In this document: positions 61,201 to 64,000 of the stretch, piece after piece
How positions within the stretch are numbered: the stretch's first letter is position 1
Layout: each line of letters begins with the position of its first letter
Assembly: GCA_964629685.1 (NCBI GenBank)
Contig: CAZVTT010000001.1
Span: 176,627-240,626 of the forward strand
Origin: an uncultured Gammaproteobacteria bacterium
Lineage (GTDB): Bacteria > Patescibacteriota > Microgenomatia > UBA10105 > UBA927
Direction of reading: 5' to 3'
DNA: 64,000 nt
Position numbers and translations under genes: made by a program
The notes under the pieces: generated by a model
Seen by the model: the letters and a program-made list of their open reading frames with translations, nothing else
Databases searched by the model: none
What the model was told of the DNA's origin: nothing

Positions 61201-62373
61201 ATGAATTTACGATCGTTTGATTCCGTAAAAGCCCGGCGCGATGCAGTAGAGAACGTGACCGGAAAACCGCTAAAACAGATAGGTAATCATGTCCTGGATG
61301 AAACTGTTGCAGCCGCCAGGCACTGCGAAAACATGATCGGAGCAGTGCAGGTCCCTTTGGGGATTGTTGGTCCGTTGCGTGTGCATTCCGTAACAACCGG
61401 AGTGGAACAGGAATATTTGGTACCACTTGCGACGACCGAAGCTGCCCTGGTCGCCTCCGTGAATAGGGGAGTAAAAGCCATAACTGAAAGCGGAGGGGCA
61501 AAGGTTATGAGTGAGCGGGTAGGTCCGACCAGAGGCCCCGTATTCAGGGTCGAGAGTATTGAAGACGGTATCAGCTTTGAACAGTTTTTAGAAAATCAAT
61601 TCCCTGAATTACAAAGGGTGGCTGAGGAGACTTCCCATCATTTGAAGCTCAAGCAGTATTTCGTTCGGGGAGCAGGAAAGTACAGATATGTGCGATTTGT
61701 ATTCGATACGCAGGACGCCATGGGATTAAACATGGTTACTATAGCTACGCAGGCGATGGTTGTTTATATCGAAACGAAAACCGGAATTCCATGTACCGAT
61801 ATATCCGGAAACTATTGTGTCGATAAAAAACCTTCCTGGCAAAACGTAATAAATCAGCGTGGCTTACCGACTCACGCCGAAATAACGTTGTCATCCGAAA
61901 CTATTTCAGGGATTCTGAAAACCACACCCGAAGCGATATATGAAAGCTGGTTAGCTAAATGTATGTTGGGAAGCGCCATGTCAGGATCTATGGCATTCAA
62001 TGCACAGTTTGCCAATATTCTGGCAGCAATATTCCTGGCAACCGGTCAGGATATTGCACATGTTTCCGAAGGATCTGTCGGGTTTACCACGACTGAGTTA
62101 ATATCGGGCCCGTCAGATAAGGCATTATATGTAAGTATTTACTTGCCGGACTTGCTGGTCGGTACGGTTGGTGGGGGAACAGCTTTGGGGCCACAGCAGG
62201 AAGCTCTGGGTTTACTGGGTGTAGCTGGTGGCGCTGACGGGAAGAATGCTCTGCGTTTTGCGGAAATAATCGGAGCTACGGTGCTGGCAGGTGAAATTTC
62301 ATTGCTGGCTTCTTTAGCAGAAGGTTCGCTGGCGCGTGCGCACGCTCAATTGGCGCGGGGAAAGGGTCAATAA
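61201..62373 (+). CDS. hmgA: 3-hydroxy-3-methylglutaryl-CoA reductase (archaeal-size, about 390 aa)
   Basis: ENMIGAVQVPLGIVGPLRV; DAMGLNMVTIATQAM, matching the DAMGxN motif; GTVGGGTALGPQQEALGLLGV. Confidence 0.85.
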   Translation: MNLRSFDSVKARRDAVENVTGKPLKQIGNHVLDETVAAARHCENMIGAVQVPLGIVGPLRVHSVTTGVEQEYLVPLATTEAALVASVNRGVKAITESGGAKVMSERVGPTRGPVFRVESIEDGISFEQFLENQFPELQRVAEETSHHLKLKQYFVRGAGKYRYVRFVFDTQDAMGLNMVTIATQAMVVYIETKTGIPCTDISGNYCVDKKPSWQNVINQRGLPTHAEITLSSETISGILKTTPEAIYESWLAKCMLGSAMSGSMAFNAQFANILAAIFLATGQDIAHVSEGSVGFTTTELISGPSDKALYVSIYLPDLLVGTVGGGTALGPQQEALGLLGVAGGADGKNALRFAEIIGATVLAGEISLLASLAEGSLARAHAQLARGKGQ

Positions 62374-62376
62374 ATC

Positions 62377-63420
62377 ATGGTAAGTGTATTAAGTTATGGT
62401 GCATATATACCCAGAAGCAGAGTATCGTTAAAATCGATTGCTGAAGCATGGAAAAAAGAATCCGGAGACGTAGAGGGTTCTTTGGGACTTAAAGAAAAGT
62501 CAGTACCTGCTGTAGATGAAGATGCTGTGACTATTGCCTACGAAGCTGCAGTTCAAGCGTGCCTGCCTCAGCATTGTCAGCCGAAAAATATCGGCGCGTT
62601 ATTTGTAGGTTCGGAAAGTCATCCGTATGCCGTAAATCCTACATCTACCATCGTGGGGGATTTATTGGGGATCGGTCATAATTATCTGGCAGCCGATATG
62701 GAGTTTGCCTGTAAAGCGGGTACTGCCGGCATTCAGGCTACCGTGGGTTTAATTCAAAGTGGTCAAATACAAATGGGCATGGCTATCGGAACTGATGCTG
62801 CTCAAAGTAAACCACATGATGCCCTGGAATATACATCGGCAGCTGCCGGAGCGGCATTCGTTCTCGGAAAAGGAACCGGTGTTGCCGAATTAATGGCTAT
62901 GAATTCATATTCTTCGGATACGCCGGATTTTTGGCGACGGGATGGCATCAGATATCCCTCACATGCAGGGCGTTTTACCGGAGAACCAGCGTATTTTGCC
63001 CACGTTATGGGTGCCGCCAAACAGCTATTCGAAAAAACAGAAACGACTGCCTCTGATTACACCTGGTGTGTATTTCATATGCCGAACGGAAAATTTCCCC
63101 GTGAAGCAGCAAAACGGCTTGGGTTTTCCAAGGAACAGTTAGTCCCGTCTTTGACCGTTGATGCAATCGGAAATCCGTATTCTGCTTCTTCTCTATTGGG
63201 ATTTGCTGCTGTATTAGATCAGGCGAAGCCCGGAGACAAAATATTTATGGTATCGTACGGTTCCGGAGCCGGTAGTGATGGGTTTGTGTGGCTGGTGGGG
63301 CCGGGGATTTTGGATGTACAGGAGCTGAGGAAGCAACATAAACTACGTGTGATTGATTTTATAGATAATCGTGTATCTATTGATTATCTGGGGTATTTAA
63401 AGCAGACACAAAAAATATAA
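62377..63420 (+). CDS. hydroxymethylglutaryl-CoA synthase, archaeal-type (thiolase-fold condensing enzyme)
   Basis: 347 aa. SYGAYIPRSRVSLKSIAEAW...FACKAGTAGIQ carries the active-site Cys, and GSGAGSD is present. Confidence 0.75.
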   Translation: MVSVLSYGAYIPRSRVSLKSIAEAWKKESGDVEGSLGLKEKSVPAVDEDAVTIAYEAAVQACLPQHCQPKNIGALFVGSESHPYAVNPTSTIVGDLLGIGHNYLAADMEFACKAGTAGIQATVGLIQSGQIQMGMAIGTDAAQSKPHDALEYTSAAAGAAFVLGKGTGVAELMAMNSYSSDTPDFWRRDGIRYPSHAGRFTGEPAYFAHVMGAAKQLFEKTETTASDYTWCVFHMPNGKFPREAAKRLGFSKEQLVPSLTVDAIGNPYSASSLLGFAAVLDQAKPGDKIFMVSYGSGAGSDGFVWLVGPGILDVQELRKQHKLRVIDFIDNRVSIDYLGYLKQTQKI

Positions 63421-63423
63421 GCT

Positions 63424-64000
63424 ATGAAAATTGAAGTAATCGGCGCTGCAACAACCACGTTTGGTGAACTTTGGGAAGTTTCTCCCCGATCTTTGGCGCG
63501 CGATGCGGTTCAACAGGCCATGCAGCAAGCGGATGTGGAGAAAAAAGATATAGATGCACTGTATGTCGGGAACATGTTGTCGGGAATTTTGGGAGGACAA
63601 GAGCATCTGGGGTCCTTTTTTTCCGACGAATTGGGTTTTTTCTGCCCGGCGTTTAAAATTGAAGGAGCTTGTGCTTCAGGCGGACTCGCTGTGCATACGG
63701 CTGTTACGGCAATCCTCTCAGGAATATACGAAACGGTTGTGGTATTAGGTGTCGAAAAAATGACCGATCATAAACCGGAAGATGTCGCCACTGCACTTAT
63801 GGGGGCCGGTAACAGCGAAGAGCGTTACTCCGGTGCAATTTTTCCGGGCCTTTACGCGTTACTCGCACGGGTTCATATGGCAACGTATGGAACGACAGAA
63901 GAACAAATGGCTGCAGTTGCCGTGAAGAATCATTTCCATGCCAGCTTAAACCCAAAAGCACAGTATCGTTCTCCTATTACCGTGGAACAGGTGTTGCGGA
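63424..64000 (+). CDS. acetyl-CoA C-acetyltransferase (archaeal-type/SCP-x-like thiolase), 3'-truncated by the window end
   Basis: MKIEVIGAATTTFGE...KIEGACASGGLAVHTA carries the catalytic Cys. The frame stays open to position 64000. Confidence 0.75.
   Translation, partial: MKIEVIGAATTTFGELWEVSPRSLARDAVQQAMQQADVEKKDIDALYVGNMLSGILGGQEHLGSFFSDELGFFCPAFKIEGACASGGLAVHTAVTAILSGIYETVVVLGVEKMTDHKPEDVATALMGAGNSEERYSGAIFPGLYALLARVHMATYGTTEEQMAAVAVKNHFHASLNPKAQYRSPITVEQVLR

Follow-up and report, generated by a model that had tools for sequence, protein, structure and literature searches.

The 64-kb stretch of DNA analysed here (64,000 nucleotides, called the window) breaks off inside a row of mevalonate pathway genes, which raises the question whether these genes open a complete route to isoprenoids and which product such a route would serve. 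The sequence beyond the window edge was found by exact-protein look-up in a public contig of 12,828 bp (L001), which is 100% identical to the window over 5560 bp (58441-64000) and therefore belongs to the same population genome. With this downstream extension of 7.3 kb, a total of 71 kb was examined; positions are given in window coordinates unless L001 is named. The genes at the window edge are very probably the start of an operon with which a Gottesmanbacteria-like bacterium of the Microgenomates (Candidate Phyla Radiation, CPR; also called Patescibacteria) converts acetyl-CoA to the C55 polyprenyl lipid carrier.

In the proposed route, a thiolase and a 3-hydroxy-3-methylglutaryl-CoA (HMG-CoA) synthase (HMGS) would condense three molecules of acetyl-CoA to HMG-CoA in an archaeal-type complex held by a small OB-fold protein of the DUF35 family, after which a class-I HMG-CoA reductase (HMGR) would yield mevalonate. 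Two GHMP kinases would phosphorylate mevalonate twice, a GHMP decarboxylase would produce isopentenyl diphosphate (IPP), and UppS would elongate a farnesyl diphosphate primer to undecaprenyl diphosphate, which may supply the synthesis of peptidoglycan as well as the large glycan locus of the window. We infer that the decarboxylase takes the diphosphate, that flux is directed into UppS and that the complex is formed. This classical route is the simplest one, since two GHMP kinases and a decarboxylase are present and no isopentenyl phosphate kinase (IPK) is found in the cluster.

Architecture of the operon and its upper module

Positions 61201-64000 of the forward strand are filled by three co-oriented open reading frames (ORFs) for HMGR, HMGS and the start of the thiolase, with 3 nt between each pair. 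Given their strong family matches, they are judged to be genuine genes and not chance ORFs, and the sequence-only reading, which had described an HMGR, a short archaeal HMGS and a thiolase side by side in one orientation, is borne out. On L001, all genes from the Yip1 gene upstream of HMGR through uppS lie on the forward strand at intergenic distances of −35 to +16 nt, and all eight genes of the pathway operon, from HMGR to UppS, have family matches in profile searches.

The HMGR gene (61201..62373, forward strand) encodes a protein of 390 aa consisting of the soluble catalytic domain only (PF00368, E = 2.6e-113). It scored 379 bits with the class-I model TIGR00533 and 49 bits with the class-II model TIGR00532. 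The best match in the PDB was the HMGR of Methanothermococcus thermolithotrophicus (6HR7; 331 bits, 49% identity); the archaeal and eukaryotic class-I structures together spanned 226-331 bits (eukaryotic ones about 240), as against about 35 bits for class-II structures. The equivalents of the catalytic residues, E80, K209/K210, D284 and H381, are invariant across 30 homologues. By its sequence the enzyme is of class I and has Glu, Lys, Asp and His at the catalytic positions, and class II is ruled out by the low scores with the class-II model and structures.

The following gene (62377..63420, forward strand) encodes a short archaeal-type HMGS of 347 aa, which passed two archaeal NCBIfam models, NF003274 with 465 bits (cutoff 244) and TIGR00748 (HMG_CoA_syn_Arc) with 412 bits (cutoff 353), whereas the bacterial-type model TIGR01835 gave 114 bits against a cutoff of 360. 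Its best solved relative is chain I of 6ESQ, the thiolase/HMGS/DUF35 complex of M. thermolithotrophicus (50% identity, E = 8e-103). The E-C-H-N tetrad is intact: E80, C112, H234 and N266 correspond to E82, C114, H238 and N270 of that chain. The archaeal/SCP-x-type acetoacetyl-CoA thiolase has its first 192 codons in the window (63424..64000, forward strand) and is complete on L001 (4984-6141; 385 aa). The full protein scored 473 bits with NF004720 (cutoff 420) and is closest among solved structures to 6ESQ chain A (47% identity, E = 1.7e-92). The CxS motif (C83-A-S85, inside the window), the HDxF motif (H278-D-C-F281) and the GHx motif (G329-H330-P) are all present. A PhaA-type ketothiolase, which the sequence-only reading had named as the ordinary bacterial alternative, is ruled out (52 bits against a cutoff of 740), and its description of the upper module as archaeal-type agrees with 6HR7 and the methanogen 6ESQ chains being the best solved relatives.

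A DUF35 gene had been suspected just past the window edge. It was found in L001 directly after the thiolase gene (6138-6452, forward strand), its start overlapping the thiolase stop by 4 nt, and encodes a protein of 104 aa with an OB_ChsH2_C domain (PF01796, E = 6e-15). The DUF35 chain of 6ESQ is its best solved relative (E = 4e-12, 38% identity), with an alignment that covers residues 48-129 of the 130-aa archaeal protein. The protein consists of the OB domain only and contains no cysteine; a search of it for PF12172 gave no match. The protein measures about 100 aa in each of 69 related loci, none of which has a CxxC pair anywhere in the open frame, its upstream part included. Likewise, the best 120 database homologues measure 98-117 aa and match PF01796 only. 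In the AlphaFold model (pLDDT 79) an N-terminal helix, conserved among the CPR proteins as SPVKIWRNQK, is joined directly to a five-stranded OB barrel. The top Foldseek match of this model was 6ESQ chain E (TM 0.66, E = 3.6e-8), followed by PhlB, MucC, ChsH2 and the thiolase partner of the benzylsuccinate pathway. One NCBI record names a ribbon-less CPR DUF35 a ‘Zn-ribbon domain-containing OB-fold protein’, and a literature search found no paper connecting DUF35 with the CPR.

All three subunits thus have their best solved match in the archaeal complex 6ESQ; the catalytic motifs are kept, the three genes are neighbours and the predicted OB fold superposes on chain E. The difference lies in the CPR DUF35, which is small, cysteine-free and without the rubredoxin-like zinc ribbon, a description that also fits all 69 related loci and the best 120 database homologues. 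By homology, thiolase, HMGS and DUF35 would form a complex of the archaeal type.

The lower half of the pathway is encoded directly downstream on L001. The GHMP kinases K1 (317 aa; 6469-7422, forward strand) and K2 (483 aa, fused to a Nudix domain; 7388-8839, forward strand) are followed by a mevalonate-(di)phosphate decarboxylase of 325 aa (8836-9813, forward strand), which scored 266 bits with TIGR01240 (cutoff 171). UppS (232 aa; 9816-10514, forward strand; TIGR00055, 233 bits, cutoff 110) begins 2 nt past the decarboxylase. The proposal of the sequence-only reading that the mevalonate genes bear on lipid-carrier supply is supported, because UppS is the last gene of the pathway operon. Its archaeal angle held for the upper three enzymes and did not extend to the lower half, which is a bacterial/eukaryotic-type set.

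The gene order was compared across those related loci, 59 in number, whose sequence extends 8 kb or more downstream of HMGR. The order HMGR-HMGS-thiolase-DUF35 is present in all 59, and in 50 of them K1-K2-decarboxylase comes next, usually followed by UppS.

Genes of the methylerythritol phosphate (MEP) pathway (dxs, dxr, ispDEFGH) were found neither in the 7.3-kb extension nor among the scanned window ORFs of at least 150 aa, the ORFs at 52515-55571 (1018 aa) and 55670-57148 (492 aa) being unscanned. Among the same scanned ORFs there was no farnesyl diphosphate synthase, IPK or canonical IPP isomerase (IDI), and a bona fide IPP isomerase and a farnesyl diphosphate synthase are not encoded in the extension either.

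Kinases, fused Nudix domain and decarboxylase

Several points weigh against this reading of the operon. The score of HMGR lies below the curated class-I equivalog cutoff of 441.8 bits (TIGR00533), and the rubredoxin-like zinc ribbon of every solved DUF35 scaffold is deleted in the CPR proteins. K1 scored 157 bits with the mevalonate kinase (MVK) model TIGR00549, just under its cutoff of 163, and is far under all phosphomevalonate kinase (PMK) cutoffs. With both IDI models, the Nudix domain fused to K2 stays under the cutoff, and Thr, Val and Leu stand at the equivalents of Cys67, Tyr104 and Trp161. Among characterised proteins, the decarboxylase is closest to 6N0X, a phosphomevalonate decarboxylase (297 bits, as against 217 bits for the best diphosphomevalonate decarboxylase, DMD), and Asn278 (in FTVNTGQD) stands at the position of the catalytic Asp of characterised decarboxylases. 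Finally, we know of no CPR enzyme of the mevalonate pathway that has been biochemically characterised.

Of the kinases, a decarboxylase and an isomerase that the sequence-only reading had proposed to look for downstream, two GHMP kinases and a decarboxylase were found, while no PMK cutoff was reached and a canonical IDI was not encountered. K2 passes the MVK model with 193 bits. With the PMK model TIGR01220 (cutoff 165.7), K1 scored 53 bits and K2 110 bits. The MVK-type motif GEHAVV occurs in both proteins, and both look like MVK paralogues. An assignment of the MVK and PMK roles to the two failed: the hidden Markov model scores favour K2 as MVK, yet relatives with a single kinase retain the K1 type and not K2. 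The arrangement resembles the classical lower pathway of eukaryotes and Gram-positive bacteria in having two GHMP kinases and a GHMP decarboxylase in a row, with K2 and the decarboxylase passing the MVK and DMD cutoffs; it differs in that no gene here reaches a PMK cutoff and a canonical IDI is lacking.

If the Nudix domain of K2 worked as a type-1 IPP isomerase, which its names in databases suggest, the operon would be self-sufficient for both IPP and dimethylallyl diphosphate (DMAPP). Two IDI models are indeed its best NCBIfam matches (100 bits, cutoff 127, and 75 bits, cutoff 105.8), the metal ligands and diphosphate-binding residues are all retained (equivalents of H25, H32, R51, K55, H69, E87, E114 and E116), the domain is located within the pathway operon, and IDI-I was counted as universal in the CPR by Hoshino and Gaucher (2018; PMC6107057). 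The stand-alone IDIs of related CPR loci, however, reached 144-216 and 123-151 bits with the same two models and passed them. Besides the loss of the Tyr104 and Trp161 equivalents, the Cys67 position is not conserved, being Ala, Ser or Gly in relatives of the fused domain, and the canonical Nudix hydrolase box GX5EX7REUXEEXGU, which is degenerated in true IDIs, is present. Two related loci (L074 and L076) hold a canonical IDI alongside the K2-type Nudix domain, so that the two are not redundant. Isomerase activity of the fused domain is possible but doubtful. Judged from its residues, the domain is probably IDI-like and not a canonical isomerase, and the operon, as far as seen, is read as being without a bona fide isomerase.

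The fused domain resembles the IDI-like Nudix hydrolases of the E. coli YfcD type in its full Nudix box, the missing IDI cysteine and a score of 65 bits with the YfcD model. This score is below the cutoff of 152, and the domain differs from the YfcD type in its fusion to a mevalonate-pathway kinase. How widely the fusion occurs was assessed in 80 loci; a Nudix domain of this type is fused to K2, or directly follows it, in about ten related loci. A homologue search with the Nudix domain gave 77 candidates, with the fusion proteins not among them. The 32 stand-alone IDI-like Nudix homologues that were found are alike in having a full Nudix box and no IDI cysteine. No paper describing a fusion of a mevalonate kinase and a Nudix domain was found in a literature search.

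The decarboxylase raises a comparable question. Characterised diphospho-, phospho- and bisphosphomevalonate decarboxylases all have the catalytic Asp in FT[ML]DAGPN. Replacement of this residue by Asn278 and the nearer relation to a characterised phosphomevalonate decarboxylase set the protein apart from a classical DMD. The motif N-T-G-Q-[DN] is shared by about half of 57 Microgenomates orthologues, while most Gottesmanbacteria loci retain the Asp. Activity of an Asn-type enzyme is nonetheless plausible, because the D281N mutant of the Saccharolobus decarboxylase retains activity (PMC9254496).

Taken together, the Asp-less decarboxylase, the fusion of a kinase with a Nudix hydrolase and the zinc-free miniature DUF35 could mean that the post-mevalonate steps of this CPR lineage fall outside all four known pathway variants, which is considered unlikely. 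If true, the role of a Nudix domain with an isomerase-like pocket for isoprenoid diphosphates might be to trim IPP, DMAPP or mevalonate diphosphate, or to sense them, as a built-in means of control or of phosphate shuffling, and not to isomerise IPP.

Another course for the lower half is the route of the haloarchaeal/Chloroflexi type, in which mevalonate-5-phosphate would be decarboxylated to isopentenyl phosphate and an IPK encoded elsewhere would give IPP, one of the two GHMP kinases being otherwise employed. The best solved match of the decarboxylase fits this route, being 6N0X/6N0Z (E = 1e-87), of which 6N0X is the phosphomevalonate decarboxylase of Anaerolinea thermophila (PMC9254496). 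The same holds for Arg at the position of Staphylococcus epidermidis Ile27 and Thr at that of Ser192, both classed as typical of mevalonate phosphate decarboxylases (Dellas et al. 2013, Table 4), and for the absence of an equivalent of Arg193. Moreover, the related locus L080 has a decarboxylase and an IPK-like ORF but a single kinase, and IPK genes of unknown role occur in the CPR according to Hoshino and Gaucher (PMC6107057). On the other side, two GHMP kinases lie directly upstream of the decarboxylase, and no IPK was found in the 12.8-kb contig or in the scanned window ORFs. The decarboxylase carries a DMD-like Ser-Gly-Ser motif and passes TIGR01240, whereas the phosphomevalonate decarboxylase model NF040704 gave 183 bits against a cutoff of 475. 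At the position of Lys21 it has an Arg (R19), where diphosphomevalonate decarboxylases have Lys and the Anaerolinea enzyme Asn; among the relatives this position is basic in most two-kinase loci and Gln in L080 and L075. The specificity positions are, on alignment, mixed, and together with the basic residue of most two-kinase loci they favour the diphosphate over the monophosphate route, which is regarded as improbable here.

Origin and conservation of the operon

The arrangement is not new and has already been described as typical of the Microgenomates. A mevalonate cluster of the CPR, including the synteny with a cis-prenyltransferase, was reported by Hoshino and Gaucher (2018, Mol Biol Evol; PMC6107057), who also found MEP genes to be sparse in the CPR, and a mevalonate pathway in the CPR was noted as well in a paper on Peregrinibacteria genomes (PMC4736985). 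The published cluster is from the same lineage and has the same content, with an archaeal-type thiolase, HMGS, HMGR-I, two GHMP kinases, a decarboxylase, an IDI-I-like gene and the syntenic cis-prenyltransferase. The locus studied here differs from that description in three respects (PMC6107057). DUF35 is absent from the paper (0 occurrences); the Nudix gene, treated there as IDI-I, is here fused to a kinase and without the isomerase residues; and the decarboxylase, labelled diphosphomevalonate decarboxylase (DPMD) there, has Asn at the position of the catalytic Asp. Each of the three deviations, namely the DUF35 without zinc, the Nudix fusion of the non-isomerase type and the decarboxylase of the Asn type, is shared by many CPR genomes.

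A recent horizontal acquisition of the three window genes from an archaeon would account for their methanogen best solved relatives and for the archaeal type of HMGS, thiolase and DUF35. The identity to the methanogen proteins is, however, 38-50%, and the nearest homologues, all from the CPR, are 58-76% identical as against 47-50% for the methanogen enzymes. The best 120 homologues of HMGR are 58-100% identical, and the few named sources among them are, all but one (KSB1), Patescibacteria, Microgenomates or Gottesmanbacteria. In the GTDB set of species representatives, which does not include the source species, Gottesmanbacteria provide the best loci (HMGR 61-63% identical). The single gene order in all 59 species-level relatives also argues against transfer, as do the G+C content of the operon (0.45-0.48), which is in line with that of the neighbouring core region, and published trees, in which the CPR enzymes form a clade of their own congruent with the CPR species tree. 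Since the CPR proteins are nearer to each other than to archaeal ones and the G+C content matches, a recent transfer is very unlikely, and the genes are read as a lineage-typical inheritance and not as a recent archaeal import.

That HMGS, thiolase and DUF35 represent a repurposed acyltransferase of secondary metabolism of the PhlABC/MucABC type is hardly credible. Behind the archaeal complex, PhlA, PhlC and PhlB do rank next among the solved structures, but the archaeal subunits score about twice as high as PhlA and about four times as high as PhlC, and the trio is placed between HMGR and the mevalonate kinases. The E-C-H-N tetrad and the HDxF motif, which the repurposed PhlABC/MucABC complexes of bacteria have lost (PMC12960953), are moreover intact in HMGS and thiolase here.

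Additional genes were observed within the cluster in some relatives. A SAM-methyltransferase-like ORF (S-adenosylmethionine; about 270 aa) lies between K1 and K2 in several related loci, and a HAD-like ORF lies between K2 and the decarboxylase in others, both labels being motif-based. The IPK-like ORF of L080 follows the decarboxylase (7501-8307) and is likewise labelled from sequence motifs only. The other inserted genes were located at 14594-15406 in L012, 14911-15717 in L032, 14732-15574 in L042 and 15615-16469 in L082.

Many of the CPR-type loci (L007, L009, L011 and others) come from metagenome-assembled genomes titled ‘uncultured Gammaproteobacteria’, and of the two further records L027 and L068, one is titled Candidatus Methanoperedens and the other Limisphaerales. 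Such titles are probably placeholder names or the result of binning contamination and not the true hosts.

Surroundings of the operon and the lipid carrier

The pathway genes are preceded by a block of three genes on the forward strand. An ECF-type (extracytoplasmic function) sigma-70 factor (59729..60313; L001 1289-1873) was recognised by PF04542 (Sigma70_r2) and PF08281 (Sigma70_r4_2). It is followed after 1 nt by a gene for a 76-aa protein with one hydrophobic segment and no Pfam match (60315..60545; L001 1875-2105), which, from its position, is possibly an anti-sigma factor. An integral membrane protein with a Yip1 domain (60569..61192; PF04893, E = 9.8e-9) is encoded 8 nt before HMGR. The block adjoins HMGR with gaps of 1-23 nt and recurs in 37-43 of 71 related loci: 43 of these have a sigma-gene homologue on the same strand no more than 2 kb upstream, and a Yip1 homologue stands immediately upstream of HMGR, again on the same strand, in 37. 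We infer that the sigma gene belongs to the pathway operon, and the block may point to control by envelope stress or to an anchoring of the pathway in the membrane. The frequency of promoter-like sites did not exceed that in shuffled sequence, and terminator-like sites, at about 2.5 standard deviations above the shuffles, were all intragenic or weak; the ends of the operon are therefore not defined by these scans.

The first 34 kb of the window form a large glycan locus with GT4 and GT2 transferases, Wzy-like proteins, flippases and an ABC-2 exporter. It includes a polyprenyl-phosphate-dependent phosphoglycosyl (sugar) transferase of the Bac_transf family (28440-29081). This sugar transferase, the Wzy-like proteins and the flippases would use the lipid carrier, which supports the reading that the operon supplies it. 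A fusion of ATP-sulfurylase and APS-kinase (APS, adenosine 5′-phosphosulfate; 17994-19724), as in 3′-phosphoadenosine-5′-phosphosulfate (PAPS) synthesis, and a sulfotransferase (22331-23074) lie in the same locus and suggest that this CPR bacterium has a surface polysaccharide that is sulfated. The G+C content is 0.34-0.41 in the glycan locus (1-28000) as against 0.43-0.50 in the rest of the window.

The dnaA and dnaN genes (37612-40290) coincide with the minimum of the cumulative GC skew (−1.52 at 36-38 kb), and this region is probably the replication origin, at about 21 kb from the operon. Between 40 and 59 kb, a type-IV-secretion-like set (40294-51153) and an array of small pilin-like genes were found. 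The set comprises an M23 peptidase of 957 aa (41306-44179), a VirB4-like ATPase (44192-46246), a PrgI-family protein (46982-48640) and a VirD4/TrwB-like coupling protein (48826-51153). Upstream of the operon there are six small T4SS_pilin-like genes (PF18895; 57207-59775, reverse strand). A further three, one of them encoding a Cys-rich protein of 364 aa, follow past UppS on the reverse strand (L001 10521-12494). Pilin-like genes are also the largest family in the flanks of the related loci (98 ORFs).

The operon thus offers a further example of the mosaic character of the CPR, with an archaeal-type upper half and a bacterial-type lower half, and adds no new argument on isoprenoid evolution. 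The three deviating enzymes could change the ‘IDI’ and ‘DPMD’ labels in reconstructions of CPR pathways. For the organism itself, the locus would show how the lipid carrier for cell wall and surface glycans is secured by a bacterium whose genome measures about 1 Mb, namely by a route from acetyl-CoA to undecaprenyl diphosphate placed in one transcription unit, possibly under a sigma factor of the envelope-stress type.

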